Origin: a virus
Taxonomy: Duplodnaviria > Heunggongvirae > Uroviricota > Caudoviricetes
DNA: 21,541 nucleotides
IMG/VR virus record: IMGVR_UViG_2526164662_000046
Strand: one strand, 5' to 3'
Below, piece after piece: positions 3,776 to 19,902 of the stretch (positions are counted from its first letter, which is position 1; each line of letters opens with the position of its first letter). The notes under the pieces are model-generated. The model had not been told where the DNA came from, did not search any database, and worked only from the letters and a program-made list of their open reading frames with translations. Both the position numbers and the translations under genes were made by a program.

Positions 3776-5402
<1,627 letters not shown>

Positions 5403-5439: not shown

Positions 5440-6978
5440 TTATTCAGTCGGCAGTGCTACGCGCCAGGGGAGCAGTTCGCCGACCCGGTTTATCGGCCAG
5501 TCGGCTATGACGTCAAGGACATAGCGGAGGTAGCTTTCTGGCTCCACTCCGTTCAGTTTGCACGTCCCGATCAGGCTGTACAGCAGCGCTCCCCGCTCTC
5601 CTCCATGATCCGAACCGAAGAACAGGTAGTTTTTGCGGCCCAGACTGACCATCCGCAACGCATTTTCAGCGATGTTATTGTCCGCCTCAGCCCAGCCATC
5701 ATCTGCATAGTACGTCAGCGCCGGCCACTGGTTCAGGGCGTATGCGAACGCTTTCGCCAGTTCTGAGTGTCGCGACAGGGTTTTCATCTTTTCACGCAGC
5801 CAGCTTTCCAGGGATTTCAGCAGCGGTTTCGTTTTCAACTGACGTTCGGCAAGGCGCTGCTCCGCCGTCATTCCCCTTATCTCTGCCTCGATGGCGTACA
5901 GTTCGCCGATCCGTTTCAGCGCTTCCTCCGTCAGGGCTGACGGGGTGCGAACGTGCACATCGTGGATTTTACGGCGGGCGTGAGCCCAACAGGCGGCTTC
6001 CGTTATCCGGCCATCCCGGTACAGCTCGTTGAACCCGGCGTATGCATCCGCCTGCAGTACACCACTGAACCCCGCAAGATGGGTCTGCGGATGGATGCCT
6101 TTTCTGTCCGGGCTGTAAGCGAACAACACCGCCGGCGCCAGCGTTGACCCGGCGTTACGGTCGTCACGAACGTAGGTCCATAACCGCCCGGTCTTCGTTT
6201 TCTTATTGCCTGGCAACAGCACCGGGACAGGCGTGTCATCAGCATGGAGCTTACCGTCAGTCAGCACATAGTCCTGAAGCGCTTCTTCCAGCGGTGACAG
6301 TAGCCGGCAGCATGCATCCACCCAGCCCGACAGCAGTGAACGACTCAGCTCCACGCCCTGGCGGCCGTACATTTCAGACTGGCGGTACAGCGGGGTGTGC
6401 TCTGCATACTTTGAGATCAGCACGCGGGCCAGCAGCCCCGGTCCTGCGATACCCCGCTCGATGGGCCGTGAAGGCGCGGGGGCCTGCACGATGGCATCGC
6501 ACTGAGTACAGGCATGCTTTTCACGTACAGTCCGGATAACCCGGAAGGCGCTGCGCATCAACTCCAGCTGTTCGGCGGCATCCTCACCCAGATAGCTCAG
6601 TGAGCCTCCACATTCCGGGCAGCATGATGCTGCCGGCAGCAGCCGTTTTTCATCGCGGGGGAGTGATTCGGGGAACGGTTTGCGGGTGCGGGTTTGACGC
6701 AGCGGGCGCTGCACGGCCGGGTCGTCAACCCGACCGGTAAGGGTATCACTTTCTTTCTGAAGTGCCTTCAGGTCAGCTTCCATCTGTGCGATACGACGGG
6801 AGACTTTTTCGGAGCGGCTGCCGAAGTTCATCCGGCGCAGCTTATCCAGCTGTGCCTGCAGATGGTCTATTTCGCGTTCACGCTCGTTCAGCTTTTCCAG
6901 CAGGGCACGGTTCAGCGCCTCCTGTTCGGCAAGGAGACGTTTCAGTGCATTGATATCGTCAGGAAGTGAGCTGCTCAT
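5440..6978 (-). CDS. IS66-family transposase (TnpC/Orf3)
   Basis: 512-aa ORF with N-terminal coiled-coil/leucine-zipper ([38 protein letters not shown]) and CPECGG / CTQCD zinc-finger-like motifs typical of IS66 transposases. Confidence 0.85.
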
Positions 6979-7026
6979 ACCGGGTATATTACCAGGCTCA
7001 TTCAGCGTCGACCAGGATAAAGAGGC

Positions 7027-7374
7027 TTACAACATAGTCAGGGACGTAAGCAGTCTTTTAGGCTGCCGCCAGTCGATACCTTCCAGCAGCATCGCCAGCT
7101 GTGCCGGTGTGAGGAACACTTTGCCATCCCGGGCTGACGGCCAGGCGAAGCGGCCGCGCTCCAGCCGTTTGGTCAGCAGACACAGTCCATCGCCGGTAGA
7201 CCAGAGGAGCTTTACCTGACTGCCATTACGCCCACGGAAGATAAAAACGTGACCTGACATCGGATCGTCTTTCAGCGTCGTCTGCACCTTTGCCGCCAGG
7301 CCGTTGAAGCCGTTTCTCATATCGGTGATGCCAGCGACCAGCCAGATCTTTGTCCCTGATGGTAATGGGATCAA
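7027..7374 (-). CDS. IS66-family accessory protein TnpB (Orf2)
   Basis: 115 aa; position and size match IS66 Orf2; start overlaps the tnpA stop (ATGA at 7371-7374). Confidence 0.8.
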   Translation of the reverse strand: MIPLPSGTKIWLVAGITDMRNGFNGLAAKVQTTLKDDPMSGHVFIFRGRNGSQVKLLWSTGDGLCLLTKRLERGRFAWPSARDGKVFLTPAQLAMLLEGIDWRQPKRLLTSLTML

Positions 7375-7775
7375 CGTTTGAGCTCCCGTATCAGCAGGTT
7401 CAGGATATTTTCGCTGATGGCACCATTCAGACGGAGTGATCCGTGCCGGAACGTCACTTCACAGCTGATATTGAGTGATTCAGGTGTCGCAGCAGCTACA
7501 GGTTGTGACCGGGGGGAGGTTGTAGGGACAACATCTTCGGCATCAAGTGTTATCGGGAGCAGCTCAGGCACGTTGTTTTCTGTTGTTGAAGGAGGACGTA
7601 GTTTTCCTTCGCGCCAGTACTGGCGCCACTTGAACAGCAAATTATCGTTGATCCCATGCTCACGAGCGAGTTGCGCTACGGAGATCTCTGGTCGATGCGA
7701 GAGTTCAACCATTTTGATTTTGAACTCAACGGGATAATTAGGGCTTTTTTTACGCACTGCGGTTAATGATTTCAT
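7371..7775 (-). CDS. IS66-family accessory protein TnpA (Orf1)
   Basis: 134 aa with HTH-like region (ISVAQLAREHGINDNLLFKWRQ); first ORF inside the IS end. Confidence 0.8.
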   Translation of the reverse strand: MKSLTAVRKKSPNYPVEFKIKMVELSHRPEISVAQLAREHGINDNLLFKWRQYWREGKLRPPSTTENNVPELLPITLDAEDVVPTTSPRSQPVAAATPESLNISCEVTFRHGSLRLNGAISENILNLLIRELKR

Positions 7776-10958: not shown

Positions 10959-12746
10959 ATGGACGATATTAATATCAGCCTCGACGAACTTAACACTATT
11001 GATTTATCCCCCTTAATCCAGAGTAAGCTGCCAGTTACCTGCTTTGATATCACAAAGTATCTTTCTAGCCTAGGTGATGGAAGAGCGGAGATAAGACTGC
11101 TAACCCATATTTGCGGTTTTCACTTTCGTCCCGAAAATCCACAGGTACCATTTGGTCCGTGCTTTCAAAGCAGCCAAGGTAGATCTGCAATTCCGGATGA
11201 CATTAACGGGTTGTCGCTGGAGGTACTTTCTCAATTTTGCCCGACGATAGAGCTACCCGAACTTCAAGCTCGTATTGCTGATACACTTTGGGTTCGTAAA
11301 ATTGGTGGAATCCGTTTTCCTTTGCTGGCAGTCCGTGCTTATTATGCGTCCAGTATAGCTATTATGACATCGCAAGGGACGTGGGTTAGTGCTTTAGAAC
11401 GCCTAGAGCGTGCGCTTAGGCTGTGTTGTTTTTTTCGAAAGCATACTGATTTCAGGGATGAATTTGATCAGCTTTCGGCACATCTACTAGCAGAGTATGA
11501 ACGTACCAGAGAACAAGGCGATTCACCTTATCCGCTGCGACTCCTGCAACTCGATATCGACTGTAAAGTGAGTGAGCCATCTTTTATTGCCCAGGAACTC
11601 CTGTTTCTGACAAAAAACTATCTGGCTCAAAAATTATTTTCATTTGCCGTCGATGCCTGTAAAACCGCAATCCCGATTGCGAATAGGTGCTGTGACAGAG
11701 ATACACAGTTTGAATTCTGGCGGCTTCTTGCCGATACACATCTGGAAGAGTCAAAATTCCAAGATGGCGGTATGATTTCGGCAGCCTGCATGCAGAATGC
11801 TATTGAAGCACTGGCTAATATTCCAGGAACCCGAATAGAACGTCTTGCGCTGTATGAAGAAATGCGTGATTACCAAATCGAATCCCGTCACCAGATGTCT
11901 ATCCTTCAGTCTCCCCCTCAAGATATTAGTGAGATTGTCCATCAAGCCAAGAGTCGGGTAGTCGGAAGAGATTTGTTTGATATGGTTTTCAGACTTGCGA
12001 TGCTGGTCTGTCGGCCAACCAGCATTGAGAGACTTAAGGCTCAAGCAATAGAACAAAAGGCCAACAGCATAGCTTGGATGTTTGGATCAACACATATTGA
12101 TCATGAGGGAATGACACTTGCTCGCATACCCGCAGGATTGGGGATTGATGATGCAAATGGGGCAGTTATTTGGCCCATAATGATGACGAGAATGCGTATC
12201 GACCATGAGTTGGCAGTAGCTGGGCAAATTATTCCTGCTACAGATGAGATCACAATGAAATATCCAATCTCGGAGGCGTTTTTTCGCGATATGTTCATCA
12301 ATCATCCCTTCATCCCGTTTGGGCATGAAGAGTTTTTCATCAAGGGTATGGTTTGCGGTTTCAATGGAGATTTTATGACGGCATGCCACGTGTTGATTCC
12401 CCAGATCGAAAATAGTCTGAGATATGTGGCTAAAATTAAAGGTGAGGAACCATCGCAGCTTCACGGGGACGGTTCGCAAGAGCGAAATGGACTCAAGGGA
12501 TTACTAGATAATCCACTGATTATTGAAGCTTTCGGCGTAGACATAATTGGCAATCTTCAGGCCTTACTGGTAGATAAAATCTATGGTGATTTACGAAATC
12601 AACTAGCTCACGGATATGTGCCTGCCGGTTACTACAATCAACCTCCCTGCATTTTTGCATGGTGGCTTGTATTGCACATTCTAATGAACCCTACGGCGAG
12701 ATACTGGCAAGCCACTTATGGCCAAGAGAGTGAGGCTCAGACTTAA
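10959..12746 (+). CDS. Large hypothetical protein (595 aa), candidate anti-phage/abortive-infection effector with HEPN-like R-x4-H-G motif
   Basis: ATG 10959 with AAGGTGA 5 nt upstream; uninterrupted 595-codon frame; opposite strand to all surrounding phage operons; rare codons (AGA, ATA, CTA) in the first 150 nt; C-terminal motif DLRNQLAHGY (R546...H551, nt 12594-12614) matching the HEPN R-x4-6-H signature; no homologue I recognise from the K-12 Qin prophage. Confidence 0.8.
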   Translation: MDDINISLDELNTIDLSPLIQSKLPVTCFDITKYLSSLGDGRAEIRLLTHICGFHFRPENPQVPFGPCFQSSQGRSAIPDDINGLSLEVLSQFCPTIELPELQARIADTLWVRKIGGIRFPLLAVRAYYASSIAIMTSQGTWVSALERLERALRLCCFFRKHTDFRDEFDQLSAHLLAEYERTREQGDSPYPLRLLQLDIDCKVSEPSFIAQELLFLTKNYLAQKLFSFAVDACKTAIPIANRCCDRDTQFEFWRLLADTHLEESKFQDGGMISAACMQNAIEALANIPGTRIERLALYEEMRDYQIESRHQMSILQSPPQDISEIVHQAKSRVVGRDLFDMVFRLAMLVCRPTSIERLKAQAIEQKANSIAWMFGSTHIDHEGMTLARIPAGLGIDDANGAVIWPIMMTRMRIDHELAVAGQIIPATDEITMKYPISEAFFRDMFINHPFIPFGHEEFFIKGMVCGFNGDFMTACHVLIPQIENSLRYVAKIKGEEPSQLHGDGSQERNGLKGLLDNPLIIEAFGVDIIGNLQALLVDKIYGDLRNQLAHGYVPAGYYNQPPCIFAWWLVLHILMNPTARYWQATYGQESEAQT

Positions 12747-12964: not shown

Positions 12965-13366
12965 TTATCCCTGATAAAATGCCAGTATGCGCTGCATAAC
13001 TTCACTCATCCGGCACTCGCGACAGATTATGTTTAGGCGACTGTCGTAGCGACGTATTTCTCCATCAGGTAACGACCAGATAAGGTCCGGATCAACCACA
13101 GCTGTTTTCTTCACCTTTGCCCTCGAGAGTTTTTTGCGGGCGTTTTGCCAGTCCTTACGCGCCTGTTCAGACGGGAATAACCCGTAGCCGGAGTTGTATA
13201 CATCGCCACTGGCTACCAGCTCTCTGGCAAGAACGCTCATCAGATATCTAGTCGCACCTGTTTTAGCTTCCAGTTGCCGTAACGTCTCACGACCGCTCTG
13301 GCGCACGAGTTCCACCACCTGCCCTTTAATTTTTTCCCGCTCTTCTTGTGTAAAAACTTTTGCCAC
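12965..13366 (-). CDS. Hypothetical protein, 133 aa, last gene of the replication-side operon
   Basis: ORF 41 nt downstream of the initiator gene on the same strand; basic, with a possible winged-helix segment (TLRQLEAKTGATRYLMSVLAREL); no family recognised. Confidence 0.55.
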   Translation of the reverse strand: MAKVFTQEEREKIKGQVVELVRQSGRETLRQLEAKTGATRYLMSVLARELVASGDVYNSGYGLFPSEQARKDWQNARKKLSRAKVKKTAVVDPDLIWSLPDGEIRRYDSRLNIICRECRMSEVMQRILAFYQG

Positions 13367-13406
13367 AAGTCCCCCTTAAAATTACCTCATGACCTGAAAT
13401 CAAAAC

Positions 13407-14426
13407 TTATCCTCTGAAACCAGGCGGAATTTCTGTATCCGGTTCAGAAATATGATTAACACAACGCTGTACAGGTGAACGCCCCAGGCGGATGACCAGT
13501 TCGTCCCATTTTTCGCGGAGCTTTGACGGGCTCATGAAGTTTTTTACCCAGAATGGATCCCGCTGTACCCGACCAAACATTTCACAAATTTGTCTGTGGC
13601 TTCTGCCATCCAGCATCCGCATTGTGCGCACATCATTGGCCCAGACAGTCCAGTTAGGCTCTTTTGGTCGCATGATCTCGCCATCATCACTGGCGGCCTG
13701 TTCGTAGAGACCCACGATCCGCCCCCATATCCACTGCGCACACGCCAGATCCTCCTGGCTACCCCACTGGCGTTTTTTCGCACTAAACACAACTGCGCCA
13801 GGGTGCCGGATTAAAAAATCCTGTTCAGCCGTCTGCGGGTCCGGTTGCGAAGCTTCCGGACGAAAAGTGTTTTTATTCTCTGTAGTAATCTCTGTTGTAT
13901 TCTCTGTAGGATCATCGGGCCATTTTGACCCGATGACATTGGGTCGTTTTGAACCAATGGAGCGTTTCATTTTGACCTCTTCCATCGTGTCATTTTGACC
14001 TGATGGAGCGGCGCATTCTGAACCGATGGATTCGCTCAATTTGCCATCATCTAAAAGCTCGCTCCCATAGTTAATCGTGTAGAAATTGGTCATATCGCGC
14101 TTTGATTTATTGAGCTTTTCACAACGCAAAAGCCCCAGCGTTTTCAGACTTGCAAACGCGCGCTTTAACGTTGACTCTGACCAGAATGGGAACTGTTCCA
14201 GCCATTGTTCCGTTGTGTTGTAAATCCAGCGAACACCATCACATTCCATGCCGGAATTGGTATCTCTCAACCAGTAATGCAACTGCTGCAACACAATGGC
14301 TTCATTTAAGCCAATCTTCATCGCAAGCTGTGTGTTTATAACCAGTGGGCGTTCAGCAAAAAGAAGGCTCATAATTCCATCCAGCTTTTTGTTGGTATTG
14401 CTGTCGATACGCAAGTTTGAAAGCAA
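13407..14426 (-). CDS. Putative phage replication initiator (lambda O-like functional analogue) with internal origin iterons
   Basis: 339-aa ORF; N-terminal HTH-like region; the central coding region contains an array of about 23-24-bp direct repeats plus an adjacent AT-rich tract, the arrangement seen at lambda ori inside gene O. Start uncertain (alternatives at 14372 or 14321). Confidence 0.6.
   Translation of the reverse strand: MLSNLRIDSNTNKKLDGIMSLLFAERPLVINTQLAMKIGLNEAIVLQQLHYWLRDTNSGMECDGVRWIYNTTEQWLEQFPFWSESTLKRAFASLKTLGLLRCEKLNKSKRDMTNFYTINYGSELLDDGKLSESIGSECAAPSGQNDTMEEVKMKRSIGSKRPNVIGSKWPDDPTENTTEITTENKNTFRPEASQPDPQTAEQDFLIRHPGAVVFSAKKRQWGSQEDLACAQWIWGRIVGLYEQAASDDGEIMRPKEPNWTVWANDVRTMRMLDGRSHRQICEMFGRVQRDPFWVKNFMSPSKLREKWDELVIRLGRSPVQRCVNHISEPDTEIPPGFRG
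13921..14060. repeat. Iteron-like direct repeat array (5-6 units, about 23-24 bp period), putative prophage replication origin
   Basis: Units beginning 13921 (cattttgacccgatga), 13945 (cgttttgaaccaatgga), 13968 (cattttgacctcttcca), 13991 (cattttgacctgatgga), 14015 (cattctgaaccgatgga), 14038 (caatttgccatcatcta); flanking AT-rich tract 13865-13915 with ttctctgtag repeated. Confidence 0.6.
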
Positions 14427-14874
14427 TTGCTTTTTCTATAAGTTCGTCAGTTTCACGATCCACTACGGCAGGATCAGCAAAAAGCAGTCCGGACTCCACC
14501 ACATCGCCATATTCTTTGTTTAACCCGGCGATCATGTACGTGATGCTTTTTCCGTCACTAATTTCACGATACAACCTGAAATCATTAATCCGGATAGCCT
14601 CCATAATTGCAGGCACTAGCGCCGTGAACTTTTCACGCTTATCCCTGGTGTCGATAGCCTTCCAGCGTTCGAATATCTTCACTCGATTAACGCCAAGCGC
14701 TCGCTGATCAACCGCGCCACCTTCATCTGTGACACGCTGAACATCGATGTTCGGGCGCTCTTTCAAAGCCCAGAATGCTTCAGTGATTAATATCGTCGCC
14801 TGCTCCTGTGTCATTCCTGGTCGACATATCCAGGCATCCAGAGCCTCACGAGCCTGTTCAGGAGTGATTTTCAT
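14353..14874 (-). CDS. YdaT-like prophage protein (CII-position gene), 173 aa
   Basis: Start ATG 14872-14874 overlaps the dicC stop by 17 nt (translational coupling); segment KREKFTALVPAIMEAIRINDFRLYREISDG resembles Rac YdaT as I recall it. Assignment is tentative. Confidence 0.55.
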   Translation of the reverse strand: MKITPEQAREALDAWICRPGMTQEQATILITEAFWALKERPNIDVQRVTDEGGAVDQRALGVNRVKIFERWKAIDTRDKREKFTALVPAIMEAIRINDFRLYREISDGKSITYMIAGLNKEYGDVVESGLLFADPAVVDRETDELIEKAIAFKLAYRQQYQQKAGWNYEPSFC

Positions 14875-15088
14875 TGTTCAACCGCCCCGCCCGCTTCGTC
14901 TTACGATATTCGTCATAAACCTTGGGATCATACAGAAGCTCCCCGCCAGATGCCTCCTGTAGACGCATCGCGCGACCTTCAGGAACCAGTATCCCCCAAG
15001 CAGCAACACTTGCCAGTCTCACTCCTGCGGCATTGGCAAGCTTTGTTTTGCTGCCAAAAAAAGTAATTGCGTCAACTTTAAGCATCAA
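14858..15088 (-). CDS. dicC: Cro-like transcriptional regulator DicC
   Basis: 76 aa MMLKVDAITFFGSKTKLANAAGVRLASVAAWGILVPEGRAMRLQEASGGELLYDPKVYDEYRKTKRAGRLNNENHS; divergent from dicA across a 77-bp operator region; matches K-12 DicC in length and recalled sequence. Confidence 0.8.
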   Translation of the reverse strand: MMLKVDAITFFGSKTKLANAAGVRLASVAAWGILVPEGRAMRLQEASGGELLYDPKVYDEYRKTKRAGRLNNENHS

Positions 15089-15099
15089 AGCCCCCTCTT

Positions 15100-15115
15100 G
15101 TTAGACTTTTCTAAC
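15100..15115. promoter_or_regulatory. Palindromic operator in dicC-dicA divergent promoter region
   Basis: GTTAGA-cttt-TCTAAC, perfect 6-bp arms with 4-bp spacer, centred between the dicC and dicA starts; same half-site as the palindrome at 15609-15628. Confidence 0.6.
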
Positions 15116-15165
15116 ATTATTGTGCGCGGGATATCTAAGTCAAGAAAAATTAGAATTACCTAACT

Positions 15166-15573
15166 ATGGATACAAGAACCCTAGGCCAGCGAGTTCTGGC
15201 GCGACGAAAAGAATTACGCTTAACACAACGAGAAGCTGCGCGCCTCGCTGGAGTTGCTCACGTCACAATTTCACAATGGGAAAGAGACGAAACCCAGCCA
15301 GTCGGAAAACGATTGTTTGCTTTAGCGGATGCTCTGAAGTGCTCACCTACATGGCTAATGTTTGGTGACGAAGACAAGGCACCAGTGCCTGCACAAGAAC
15401 TTCATGTGGAAACAGAGCTAACTCCCAACCACAAAGAATTGATCGAATTATTCGATGCTCTTCCATCTTCCGAGCAGGAAGCCTTGCTGTCTGAAATGCG
15501 CGCAAGAGTAGAAAACTTCAACAAACTCTTCGAAGAAATGCTTAAAGCGCGTAAAAATAAATCAATAAAATAA
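15166..15573 (+). CDS. dicA: C2/CI-like HTH repressor DicA
   Basis: 135 aa; HTH (LTQREAARLAGVAHVTISQWERDETQP); C-terminal ...EMRARVENFNKLFEEMLKARKNK matches K-12 DicA as recalled. Confidence 0.85.
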   Translation: MDTRTLGQRVLARRKELRLTQREAARLAGVAHVTISQWERDETQPVGKRLFALADALKCSPTWLMFGDEDKAPVPAQELHVETELTPNHKELIELFDALPSSEQEALLSEMRARVENFNKLFEEMLKARKNKSIK

Positions 15574-16960: not shown

Positions 16961-17149
16961 ATGAAAACGTTATTACCAAACGTTAATACGTCTGAAGGTT
17001 GTTTTGAAATTGGTGTCACTATCAGTAACCCTGTATTTACTGAAGATGCCATTAACAAGAGAAAACAAGAACGGGAGCTATTAAATAAAATATGCATTGT
17101 TTCAATGCTGGCTCGTTTACGTCTGATGCCAAAAGGATGTGCACAATGA
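16961..17149 (+). CDS. dicB: Cell-division inhibitor DicB (MinC-dependent)
   Basis: 62 aa MKTLLPNVNTSEGCFEIGVTISNPVFTEDAINKRKQERELLNKICIVSMLARLRLMPKGCAQ; ATG 16961 with GAGGA Shine-Dalgarno; the ORF track extends upstream to 16856. Confidence 0.85.
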   Translation: MKTLLPNVNTSEGCFEIGVTISNPVFTEDAINKRKQERELLNKICIVSMLARLRLMPKGCAQ

Positions 17150-17430: not shown

Positions 17431-19902
17431 ATGAGTAAAGTCTTTATTTGCGCCGCTATTCCTGACGAACTGGCAACAAGGGAAGAAGGCGCTGTGGCTG
17501 TAGCCACAGCCATTGAAGCTGGCGACGAACGCCGTGCTCGAGCAAAATTTCACTGGCAATTCCTGGAACATTATCCGGCTGCTCAGGACTGCGCTTATAA
17601 ATTTATTGTCTGCGAGGATAAACCTGGCATACCCCGCCCTGCCCTCGATTCATGGGATGCTGAATATATGCAGGAAAACCGCTGGGATGAGGAGTCTGCT
17701 TCTTTTGTCCCGAATGAGACTGAATCCGATCCGATGAACGTCACTTTTGACAAGCTGGCCCCTGAAGTACAGAACGCTGTCATGGTTAAGTTCGACACAT
17801 GTGAAAACATCACCGTTGATATGGTTATTAGCGCACAGGAATTGTTGCAGGAAGACATGGCAACATTCGACGGACATATCGTTGAAGCGTTGATGAAAAT
17901 GCCAGAAGTTAACGCCATGTATCCGGAGCTTAAGTTGCACGCCATTGGGTGGGTTAAGCATAAATGTATTCCTGGTGCTAAATGGCCCGAAATTCAGGCA
18001 GAGATGCGCATCTGGAAAAAACGTCGCGAAGGTGAACGCAAGGAAACCGGAAAATACACGTCTGTTGTTGATCTCGCACGCGCCAGAGCCAATCAACAGT
18101 ACACTGAAAATTCAACAGGAAAAATCAGCCCGGTCATTGCTGCCATTCATCGCGAATACAAGCAGACATGGAAAACACTGGATGACGAACTGGCCTACGC
18201 TCTCTGGCCTGGTGATGTGGATGCCGGAAACATTGACGGCAGCATCCATCGCTGGGCAAAAAAAGAAGTTATCGACAACGACCGCGAAGACTGGAAGCGT
18301 ATCTCGGCATCAATGCGCAAACAGCCTGATGCCCTTCGCTACGACCGCCAGACTATTTTTGGCCTTGTCCGTGAGCGTCCGATCGACATTCACAAAGATC
18401 CCGTAGCACTGAACAAATATATCTGCGAATACCTGACGACAAAGGGCGTGTTTGAGAATGAAGAAACAGACCTGGGCACTGTTGATGTTCTCCAGTCATC
18501 AGAAACACAAACTGATGCAGTGGAAACTGAGGTATCTGATATCCCAAAAAATGAAACCGCGCCGGAAGCTGAACCATCTGTAGAGCGTGAGGGGCCGTTC
18601 TATTTCCTCTTCGCAGATAAGGACGGAGAAAAATACGGTCGCGCAAACAAACTTTCTGGTCTGGATAAGGCACTGGCTGCTGGCGCCACTGAAATCACAA
18701 AAGAAGAATATTTTGCCCGAAAAAATGGCACATACACGGGCTTACCGCAAAATGTAGATACCGCTGAAGATTCAGAACAACCAGAGCCGATAAAAGTTAC
18801 CGCTGACGAAGTAAACAAAATTATGCAGGCAGCCAATATCAGCCAGCCTGACGCTGATAAGTTGCTTGCTGCATCACGTGGTGAATTTGTTGAAGGGATT
18901 AGTGACCCGAATGATCCGAAATGGGTTAAGGGGATCCAGACCCGCGATTCTGTGAACCAGAACCAGCATGAATCGGAACGGAACTACCAAAAAGCGGAAC
19001 AAAACAGTCCAAATGCGTTACAAAACGAGCCAGTAACGAAACAGCCTGAACCAGTAGCGCAACAGGAAGTGGAAAAAGTCTGCACCGCCTGCGGTCAGAC
19101 CGGCGGCGGCAACTGCCCTGATTGTGGCGCGGTGATGGGCGACGCAACATACCAGGAAACATTCGATGAAGAGTATCAGGTTGAAGTTCAGGAAGATGAT
19201 CCGGAGGAAATGCAAGGCGCTGAACATCCACACAAGGAGAACACTGGCGGCAATCAGCATCACAATAGCGATAATGAAACTGGCGAGACGGCAGATCACC
19301 CAATTAAGGTGAACGGTCATCACGAAATCACATCCACCAGCAGGACGTGTGACCATCTAATGATCGACCTTGAAACCATGGGAAAAAATCCTGATGCCCC
19401 GATCATCTCAATAGGTGCAATATTTTTCGATCCGCAAACCGGAGATATGGGACCGGAATTTAGTAAGACTATCGATCTGGAAACTGCTGGCGGAGTCATT
19501 GATCGGGACACCATTAAATGGTGGCTTAAGCAATCACGCGAAGCGCAATCTGCCATTATGACCGATGAAATCCCGTTAGATGATGCACTGTTACAATTGC
19601 GGGAATTTATCGACGAAAACTCCGGTGAATTTTTTGTTCAGGTCTGGGGAAATGGAGCCAACTTCGACAACACGATTTTGCGCCGTTCATACGAACGGCA
19701 GGGGATCCCCTGCCCGTGGCGTTACTACAACGATCGCGATGTACGCACAATCGTTGAGCTGGGGAAAGCCATAGACTTCGATGCCAGAACGGCTATTCCA
19801 TTCGAAGGTGAGCGCCATAATGCACTTGATGACGCCCGTTACCAGGCAAAATACGTTTCAGTTATCTGGCAAAAACTGATCCCGAGTCAGGCTGATTCTT
19901 AA
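17431..19902 (+). CDS. Prophage exonuclease, 823 aa, with C-terminal DnaQ-like DEDDh 3'-5' exonuclease domain and internal zinc ribbon (YdfE-like, full length)
   Basis: GAGG Shine-Dalgarno before ATG 17431; C-terminal motifs MIDLETMG (Exo I), WGNGANFDNTIL (Exo II), HNALDDARY (Exo III with His); C-x2-C-x9-C-x2-C (CTACGQTGGGNCPDC); acidic low-complexity linker. Occupies the ydfE position (downstream of ydfD, upstream of xis/int). Confidence 0.8.
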   Translation: MSKVFICAAIPDELATREEGAVAVATAIEAGDERRARAKFHWQFLEHYPAAQDCAYKFIVCEDKPGIPRPALDSWDAEYMQENRWDEESASFVPNETESDPMNVTFDKLAPEVQNAVMVKFDTCENITVDMVISAQELLQEDMATFDGHIVEALMKMPEVNAMYPELKLHAIGWVKHKCIPGAKWPEIQAEMRIWKKRREGERKETGKYTSVVDLARARANQQYTENSTGKISPVIAAIHREYKQTWKTLDDELAYALWPGDVDAGNIDGSIHRWAKKEVIDNDREDWKRISASMRKQPDALRYDRQTIFGLVRERPIDIHKDPVALNKYICEYLTTKGVFENEETDLGTVDVLQSSETQTDAVETEVSDIPKNETAPEAEPSVEREGPFYFLFADKDGEKYGRANKLSGLDKALAAGATEITKEEYFARKNGTYTGLPQNVDTAEDSEQPEPIKVTADEVNKIMQAANISQPDADKLLAASRGEFVEGISDPNDPKWVKGIQTRDSVNQNQHESERNYQKAEQNSPNALQNEPVTKQPEPVAQQEVEKVCTACGQTGGGNCPDCGAVMGDATYQETFDEEYQVEVQEDDPEEMQGAEHPHKENTGGNQHHNSDNETGETADHPIKVNGHHEITSTSRTCDHLMIDLETMGKNPDAPIISIGAIFFDPQTGDMGPEFSKTIDLETAGGVIDRDTIKWWLKQSREAQSAIMTDEIPLDDALLQLREFIDENSGEFFVQVWGNGANFDNTILRRSYERQGIPCPWRYYNDRDVRTIVELGKAIDFDARTAIPFEGERHNALDDARYQAKYVSVIWQKLIPSQADS

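Follow-up and report, generated by a model that had tools for sequence, protein, structure and literature searches.

The 21,541-nt stretch of viral DNA analyzed here (IMG/VR record IMGVR_UViG_2526164662_000046; hereafter, the window) is a lambdoid, Rac-like prophage whose genes include an integrase, an excisionase, and a RecE-like exonuclease. On its minus strand, a pR-like promoter is followed by a cro-like gene, a YdaT/cII-like gene (14353-14874), a replication initiator gene, and then a DUF977/LygF gene. The initiator gene contains six dyad repeats (iterons) and, directly after them, three tandem 12-bp repeats that overlap the least stable DNA of the gene. With a probability of about 85%, we consider this site to be the vegetative replication origin of a lambdoid (mEp460/HannyBb-like) Escherichia coli prophage, carried inside its own initiator gene. 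The principal features of the locus are listed below, with iteron and 12-mer sequences given on the gene strand.

13407..14372, minus strand: replication initiator gene with the putative origin inside it; 321 amino acids (aa) from the ATG at 14372, the open reading frame (ORF) extending to a TTG at 14426
14058..14372, minus strand: coding part of the winged-helix domain at the N terminus (aa 1-105), predicted to bind the iterons
14139..14177, minus strand: codons of the predicted recognition helix (aa 66-78; helix taken from a model)
14172-14174, minus strand: codon of Ser67, the co-varying specificity residue
14029..14051: iteron 1 in gene order, degenerate, GATGATGGCAAATTGAGCGAATC (gene nt ~319-345)
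14006..14028: iteron 2, CATCGGTTCAGAATGCGCCGCTC
13983..14005: iteron 3, strong, with dyad arms, CATCAGGTCAAAATGACACGATG
13960..13982: iteron 4, core kept, arms degenerate, GAAGAGGTCAAAATGAAACGCTC
13937..13959: iteron 5, CATTGGTTCAAAACGACCCAATG
13913..13935: iteron 6, CATCGGGTCAAAATGGCCCGATG, the best dyad (11-nt arms, 91% complementary, by inverted-repeat match)
13874-13885, 13886-13897, and 13898-13909: three 12-mers, CTACAGAGAATA, CAACAGAGATTA, and CTACAGAGAATA, proposed unwinding or helicase-entry element
13862..13901: least stable 40-bp duplex of the gene (nearest-neighbor dG -44.6 kcal/mol versus a window mean of -54.1)
13485..13820, minus strand: coding part of the C-terminal domain, homologous to the C-terminal domain of lambda O (BLASTP)
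13410..13472, minus strand: codons of the C-terminal tail VQRCVNHISEPDTEIPPGFRG, which differs little from the final 21 residues of E. coli DnaT (phmmer; PDB DnaT chains 2ru8, 6aep, and 9zbt)

An earlier note on this DNA had placed the repeats in a 339-aa ORF and taken its product for a replication initiator. The ORF is real but lies on the minus strand and begins at a TTG, whereas the annotated start of the same coding sequence in phage HannyBb (97.7% identical) is the ATG at 14372, which yields 321 aa. The proposed function is borne out by a profile search (PHROG 391, “replication initiation O-like,” E value of 1.7e-90) and by a BLASTP match of the C-terminal half of the protein to the C-terminal domain of lambda O (aa 147-294 versus O residues 135-270, 34% identity over 148 aa, E value of 9e-27). 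Annotations in three near-identical phages name the protein O-like or DNA replication protein O. The alignment with lambda O starts where the iterons give way to the 12-mers, as it does in lambda. Modeling assigns the N-terminal domain a winged-helix fold of the RepA_N or DnaD N-terminal-domain type. The N-terminal 105 residues match no Pfam family, the whole protein is likewise without a Pfam match at an E value of ≤0.01, and a comparison of 43 members of the N-terminal family with Pfam returned, among the matches listed, only sub-threshold generic winged-helix domains.

The iteron array comprises six 23/24-bp units at plus-strand positions 13913-14051, with start-to-start spacings of 24, 23, 23, 23, and 23. 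The six units recurring every 23 to 24 bp lie where the earlier note had placed them (13921-14060), except that the array stops at about 14051, not 14060. It occupies gene nt 319-459 of 966, between the N-terminal domain, which ends at about aa 105, and the lambda-O-like part, which starts at aa 147. Each unit is a dyad around an A-tract (GGGTCAAAATGGCCC), and the four strong units combine the core CATTTTGACC, or a near variant of it, with the arms CATCGGG...CCCGATG. The 15-nt pattern CATTTTGACCNGATG, with up to 3 mismatches allowed, has 7 matches in 21.5 kb, 5 of them inside the array, and 0 of 100 shuffles reached 7. The 23-nt autocorrelation of the array is 0.56 against a background of 0.257 ± 0.044 (all 140-nt windows, lags 12-39), which ranks it second in the window, and the autocorrelation scan revealed no other periodic array of the iteron kind there. 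Tandem Repeats Finder detected only the 12-mers, the iterons being too divergent.

Relatives of the N-terminal domain were found by tblastn in 139 phage records, with identities of 76% in Klebsiella, approximately 50% in Staphylococcus, Bacillus, and Listeria, and 35% in Vibrio, and also in Erwinia, Pseudomonas, and Hafnia. The C-terminal domains and neighboring genes vary among these relatives, and in all inspected relatives with more than two units the array sits at the same position in the gene. Relatives carry 4 to 7 units, spaced by 23 bp in Proteobacteria and by 22/23 bp in Firmicutes; only about two units are seen in Pseudomonas phage AF. A panel of 91 loci of ~3.3 kb, called unbiased (80 species-representative genomes plus phages), shows the strongest local periodicity at a lag of 22 to 24 in 71 loci, and at gene nt 250-450 in 68. 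The core CAAAATG, CAAATTG, or CAATTTG, flanked by complementary arms, is found in 72 of ~90 loci, and across the panel complementarity between the dyad arms extends to 3.3 of 5 positions versus 1.25 expected by chance. Several types of compensatory arms are seen: GGT|ACC (17 loci), GGG|CCC (7 loci), and GGA|TCC (6 loci), as well as GTG|CAC, GAT|ATC, and TAT|ATA. That the arms change and yet stay complementary is the signature of a symmetric dimer site.

Directly 3' of the iterons in the direction of the gene, the 12-bp sequence TACAGAGAnTAC is repeated three times in tandem. The earlier note had described a duplicated ttctctgtag within an AT-rich tract: the tandem repeat exists, but as three 12-mers rather than two copies, and the tract does include the least stable 40-mer of the gene (the one starting at 13862, which is at the 98.8th percentile of the window for low stability), but its AT-richness is moderate (GC content of 0.30 to 0.36). 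In the panel, the 12-mer family has the motif (T/A)ACAGAGAnTAC, present in 1 to 5 copies right after the last iteron. The sense strand carries its CAGAGA segment 199 times at gene nt 380-560 (73 of 90 loci; ~8.8 occurrences expected), and the antisense strand only 42 times in all 289 kb, which makes the segment strand-specific. The Glu codon of the enteric 12-mers is always GAG in the sequences inspected, and because the period is 12 bp, the enteric motif is always read as Thr-Glu-x-Thr. Where the period is 10 to 11 bp, the motif falls into two or three reading frames; this is the case for Bacillus phage BhaS-171, and for the panel loci from Paenalcaligenes (L144), Campylobacterales (L137 and L138), and staphylococci (L149 and L172). 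The motif is conserved as DNA from Firmicutes to Proteobacteria, more so than the iterons themselves (L009, L010, L012, L011, L137, L138, L144, and most of L093-L172). The 12-mer element is thus under constraint as DNA, strand-specific, and phased at approximately one helical turn. Its DNA-level conservation across phyla suggests that initiator binding is followed by a sequence-specific step, one that the lambda model does not explain. No description of the motif was found in the literature; a full-text search with its sequences gave unrelated primer matches only.

Since the repeats lie within a coding sequence, their periodicity has to be weighed against a protein-level explanation, according to which it would simply result from a repetitive linker of low complexity (IGSK..., TTEITTE) and have no role as DNA. 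The region does encode the interdomain linker, two of the units yield IGSKRPNVIGSKW, the 12-mers yield TENTTEITTEN when read in frame, and 187 of the 199 CAGAGA motifs in relatives share one frame. However, the iteron period, 23 bp, does not correspond to a whole number of codons, and the array motif is translated in three frames, as IGSEC, SGQND, EVKMK, IGSKR, and IGSKW. The repetitive peptide that had been expected from the translated iterons does exist as IGSK...IGSK, but it comes from a single pair of units spaced by 24 bp, the other units giving SGQND and EVKMK. In 18 enteric relatives, compared by a gapless alignment in which the E. coli/Klebsiella and Xenorhabdus groups are out of register (per-unit conservation was taken from the 9 in-register sequences), the information content of the array is nearly equal at the three codon positions (0.91, 0.97, and 0.86 bits), whereas the N-terminal coding part shows the usual coding pattern (1.54, 1.70, and 0.82 bits) and the third codon positions of the 12-mers are near-invariant (1.95 bits). 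In a set of 57 distinct, closely related IMG/VR sequences, the 12-mers vary at 3 of 39 positions, the array at 34 of 141, the N-terminal coding part at 74 of 318, and the C-terminal coding part at 121 of 366, the 12-mer tract being the least variable segment. The out-of-frame 12-mers at loci with a period of 10 to 11 bp (L010, L144, L137, and L149) also speak against a linker by-product, as do the dyad symmetry and compensatory arm changes, which are meaningless at the protein level. The period, the three frames, the codon-position information, and the variable-site counts lead us to reject the protein-level explanation, to which we attach hardly any weight. A repeat conserved in the protein but lacking DNA periodicity in homologs, which the earlier note had allowed for, is not what is seen, because the 23-bp period runs through three frames and the periodicity is kept in relatives.

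Co-variation links the array to the encoded protein. The residue concerned, Ser67, belongs to the conserved motif W64-S65-x-S67-T68-x-K-R71 and lies where the predicted recognition helix starts. In 67 distinct N-terminal domains, the mutual information between residue 67 and the base flanking the CAA core is 1.42 bits, versus 0.73 bits for the next column, as calculated without a formal phylogenetic correction. Ser at this position is paired with T in both half-sites (25 of 25 loci), Asp with G (19 of 20 loci), Lys or Arg with A (7 symmetric and 5 asymmetric cases), and Asn or His with C (3 loci). For domain pairs that are at least 60% identical elsewhere in the domain, the same residue class means the same base in 236 of 236 comparisons and a different class means a different base in 159 of 161. 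Such switches can be followed within single genera. Staphylococcus phage P954 has Arg and the iteron GGACAAAATGGCC, whereas a prophage of Staphylococcus caprae has Ser and GGTCAAAATGACC; in Pantoea, the locus with Lys (L122) has GGACAACTTGTCC, whereas those with Asp (L112 and L114) have GGGCAAxTTGCAC. This co-variation, the strongest non-experimental evidence obtained here, gives strong indirect support to the view that the repeats are read by the encoded protein. The rule predicts that a Ser67Asp substitution would shift the preference from GGTCAAAATGACC to GGGCAAAATGCCC and that Ser67Lys would shift it to GGACAAAATGTCC, and it could help in forecasting or redesigning the origin specificity and incompatibility of phages, satellites, and RepA_N-like replicons.

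The same data bear on the idea that the repeats are bound by some other protein, such as the YdaT/cII-like protein, DUF977, or a host factor, and serve regulation, packaging, or recombination. In its favor, neighboring genes encode proteins of DNA-binding types. However, the array accompanies the N-terminal domain in phages of Staphylococcus, Bacillus, Listeria, Vibrio, and Pseudomonas even though the neighbors and the C-terminal domains are entirely different, and its sequence tracks residue 67 of that domain, so that we regard binding by another protein as very improbable.

A further alternative accepts the initiator as the binding protein and assigns the repeats to autoregulation or copy control through titration, handcuffing, or a roadblock to the 3' half of the gene itself, with the true origin elsewhere in the phage. 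Co-variation points to binding specificity, not firing, and the AT-richness of the adjacent tract is modest; moreover, the iterons of plasmid initiators serve both origin and control roles. On the other hand, the 12-mer tract always follows the array at a fixed distance, in the least stable DNA of the gene, the layout is that of two origins located inside initiator genes, those of lambda and P22, and the window contains no other such periodic array. A purely regulatory role therefore seems unlikely to us, and we infer that the site fires as a replication origin.

Several observations weigh against the origin interpretation, and it is the case with these taken into account that was put at about 85%. 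Two of the six units (13960-13982 and 14029-14051) are degenerate. The low GC content (30 to 36%) extends over only ~40 bp, and the panel-averaged dip amounts to just 4 to 5%. The absence of a formal phylogenetic correction applies to all the co-variation statistics. The scanned ORFs of the window and the annotated HannyBb region yielded no member of the P, DnaC, or DnaB families. The analogy with lambda, P22, and SPP1 is architectural only, because the N-terminal domains have no detectable similarity. Finally, this copy of the prophage may be defective because of insertion sequence (IS) elements inserted in it, with the replication module intact.

These elements are an IS66-family element at 5440-7775 on the minus strand (TnpA-like helix-turn-helix protein, TnpB, and DDE transposase) and an IS3-type integrase-core transposase at 4120-5166 on the plus strand.

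The origin interpretation is supported by the agreement of the locus with lambda-type architecture. Iterons together with an easily melted tract inside the initiator gene are the textbook arrangement for lambda. The lambda-like layout proposed in the earlier note is confirmed: the iterons lie between the coding parts of the two domains, with a low-stability tract on their transcriptionally downstream side, and this matches both the lambda origin and the annotated origin of P22. In common with lambda, dyad iterons 20 to 24 bp apart lie mid-gene between the N- and C-terminal coding parts with the low-stability tract downstream, GC-rich arms surround a CAAAAYG core (lambda iteron TCCCTCAAAACGAGGGA), the C-terminal domains are homologous (E value of 9e-27), and the operon runs from pR through cro and a cII-like gene to the initiator. 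In contrast to lambda, there are six units rather than four, conserved 12-mer repeats take the place of a plain A-rich run, and a DnaT-like tail is present while no P gene follows. Lambda itself has a single tCAGAGAATtc just past its AT-rich tract.

We considered whether the N-terminal domain might have diverged from that of lambda O and dropped the idea, as hhalign and BLASTP show no similarity: against lambda O and Phage_rep_O, this domain has no Pfam match at an E value of ≤0.01 and no BLASTP similarity, and the hhalign probability is 0.1%. Alignment of the N-terminal family by hhalign with the N termini of P22 gp18 and SPP1 G38P showed no similarity either, nor did BLASTP comparison with P22 gp18 and TP901-1 Rep.

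A similar layout is that of the P22 origin in gene 18 (rep_origin in NC_002371, 32840-32984), in which four iterons spaced by 20, 24, and 23 bp are followed by short tandem A-rich repeats, namely two 14-mers, ACAAAAGACAATAt, in a place equivalent to that of the 12-mers. The relative positions in the gene are also alike (nt 353-497 in P22 versus 319-510 here). However, the proteins show no similarity, the iteron sequence is different, and P22 encodes its own DnaB-type helicase, gp12. An origin inside the initiator gene has also been discussed for phage L (PMC8022706).

Binding of an initiator to repeats in its own gene is known from the SPP1 G38P/oriL system and from the “replisome organizer” genes of Gram-positive phages. 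Relatives of the N-terminal domain in phages of Staphylococcus, Bacillus, and Listeria are annotated as “DnaD-like helicase loader” and carry the same array, whereas no similarity to the N terminus of SPP1 G38P is detectable. The modeled fold and the iteron shape, semipalindromic on a poly-A core, resemble those of the RepA_N (PF06970) initiators, whose iterons are semipalindromic repeats converging on a poly-A tract (PMC7145576). The RepA_N initiators of plasmids such as pSK41 and pTZ2162 and the RepA of the Vibrio cholerae PLE differ from the present protein, which is encoded in a phage early operon and has a lambda-O-like C-terminal domain; with 43 alignment members as queries, RepA_N was not among the matches listed (25 of 41 families) at an E value of ≤1. 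The locus is of the lambda type in architecture, without belonging to the lambda O family in its DNA-binding domain or its P partner, or to RepA_N by sequence.

Another protein that invites comparison is DopC, a domesticated O-like protein with the C-terminal motif of DnaT (Brezellec et al. 2017, PMC5509034). DopC has a lambda-O-type N terminus, no O C-terminal domain, a P-like partner, DopE, and no iterons found at its locus (PMC5509034). The two have in common that an O-like, initiator-type protein ends in the DnaT motif; in the prophage protein, by contrast, the N terminus is not of the lambda O type, the O C-terminal domain and the iterons are present, and there is no P-like partner.

The protein terminates in the DnaT-like tail VNHISEPDTEIPPGFRG, compared to VNTVSEPDSQIPPGFRG at the C terminus of E. 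coli DnaT, and the match extends over the last 17 to 21 residues (...SEPDTEIPPGFRG). Some phage records annotate the gene as DnaT. This was ruled out, as the protein does not match the DnaT equivalog model (NCBIfam NF002770) over its whole length: the alignment is confined to the final 20 residues, at model positions 160-179 of 179, and scores 16.3 bits versus a cutoff of 201. The phmmer search of PDB also returned two matches to the Bacillus subtilis YteR glycosyl hydrolase (E values of ~0.003), which we judged to be due to chance. Tail variants, including IPAGFRG, VPAGFRS, and IPEGFRG, occur on relatives with other C-terminal domains (L008, L003, and L007 among the tail carriers). With the relaxed motif P.GF[RKN] and 0.7 to 1 kb of downstream flank examined, an ORF with a Walker A motif was found downstream of 0 of 26 tail-bearing and 15 of 59 tail-less initiators (Fisher P value of 0.004, uncorrected for relatedness).

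The C-terminal domain of lambda O binds P(-DnaB). In the prophage, the gene directly downstream of the initiator is DUF977/LygF rather than a P-like gene, and the HannyBb annotation shows, in the region examined, no replication gene besides the initiator. With neither a phage P gene nor a DnaC or DnaB gene alongside it, the initiator would have to recruit the helicase through its lambda-O-like C-terminal domain and/or its DnaT-like tail. A search of the DnaT literature found no partner assigned to the extreme C-terminal tail, which is without an assigned partner in the 2026 preprimosome structures as well (PMC13377028). The tail on these loader-less initiators offers a handle on DnaB loading without P or DnaC, and on the contacts made by the C terminus of DnaT.

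If the site is indeed the origin, events might proceed as follows. The early rightward operon (pR-like promoter, cro-like gene, YdaT/cII-like gene, and initiator) would be transcribed on the minus strand, through the origin. A dimer of the winged-helix domain would bind each of the six dyad iterons spaced by 23 bp (consensus GGGTCAAAATGACCC), with Ser67 reading, in both half-sites, the T:A pair next to the CAAAATG core. By analogy with lambda, a wrapped complex of several dimers (an “O-some” analogue) would then stress the adjacent low-stability tract, where the three helical-turn-phased (T/A)ACAGAGAnTAC 12-mers would melt. The host DnaB helicase would be loaded at the melted 12-mers via the lambda-O-like C-terminal domain and/or the DnaT-like tail, and replication would start there.

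A broader and much more tentative view, which we advance with considerable doubt, is that this locus exemplifies a cross-phyla phage origin module that is apparently undescribed. Such a module would consist of a RepA_N-like winged helix, palindromic poly-A iterons under a one-residue/one-base code at position 67 (Ser-T, Asp-G, Lys/Arg-A, and Asn/His-C), and a near-invariant helical-turn repeat that acts as a sequence-specific unwinding or helicase/primase entry element rather than a generic AT tract; in the enteric versions, the DnaT-like tail would recruit the host helicase machinery without a phage loader. Our literature searches found no description of this version of the origin, and searches on the phage names gave nothing on replication. 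The arrangement as such is well known; what goes beyond the ordinary is the cross-phyla family, the simple recognition rule, the apparently undescribed 12-mer, and the loader-less enteric versions with a DnaT tail.

The initiator gene is present at a coverage of at least 80% in 1,846 of 5,426 complete E. coli genomes, where its RefSeq label is “hypothetical protein”; the copy in E. coli ATCC 25922 is 99.8% identical. Recognition of the initiator together with its probable origin thus identifies the replication module of a very common E. coli prophage type, with coordinates that can serve for origin cloning and for plasmids of the lambda-dv type.

Two observations concern the relatives retrieved. 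The protein search with the N-terminal domain returned only proteins of 65 to 193 aa (P0001-P0120), among them several large clusters (e.g., P0009, 193 aa, with 304 members), and several of the large clusters of short proteins end in or just past the iteron/12-mer region. The search may favor certain protein lengths, or the gene may often be truncated or misassembled at its internal repeats. In addition, contigs 100% identical to the E. coli gene (L093, L094, and L147) occur in metagenome-assembled genomes labeled Veillonella parvula, Bacillota bacterium, and Collinsella; they most likely represent metagenome binning contamination and not the true host range.

Upstream of the initiator operon, two further features were noted, and an Rfam scan of 13300-15200 found no RNA family.

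15166-15573, plus strand: repressor gene
15116..15143, minus strand: pR-like promoter TTGACT-16-AATAAT, recognized by consensus match only, which would transcribe the cro-like gene, the YdaT/cII-like gene, and the initiator, hence the origin

Elsewhere in the window, a 595-aa ORF with DUF7380 and DUF4209 domains (10959-12746, plus strand) lies between the early-right genes and a DUF968/HNH gene, on the opposite strand; it is moron-like in its placement and could be a defense or accessory gene. The strongest local periodicity of the window (autocorrelation of 0.60 at a lag of 21 nt, a codon multiple) is found at 18921-19090 on the plus strand, within the RecE-like gene (17431-19902), in a stretch rich in Q, E, P, and N (...NQNQHESERNYQKAEQNSPNALQNEPVTKQPEPVAQQEVE...). 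It is probably a low-complexity protein linker, because the repeat search shows no discrete repeat there. Between the repressor and exonuclease genes, at 16965-16989, Tandem Repeats Finder reports a 13-bp tandem repeat, AAACGTTAATACC, in 1.9 copies.

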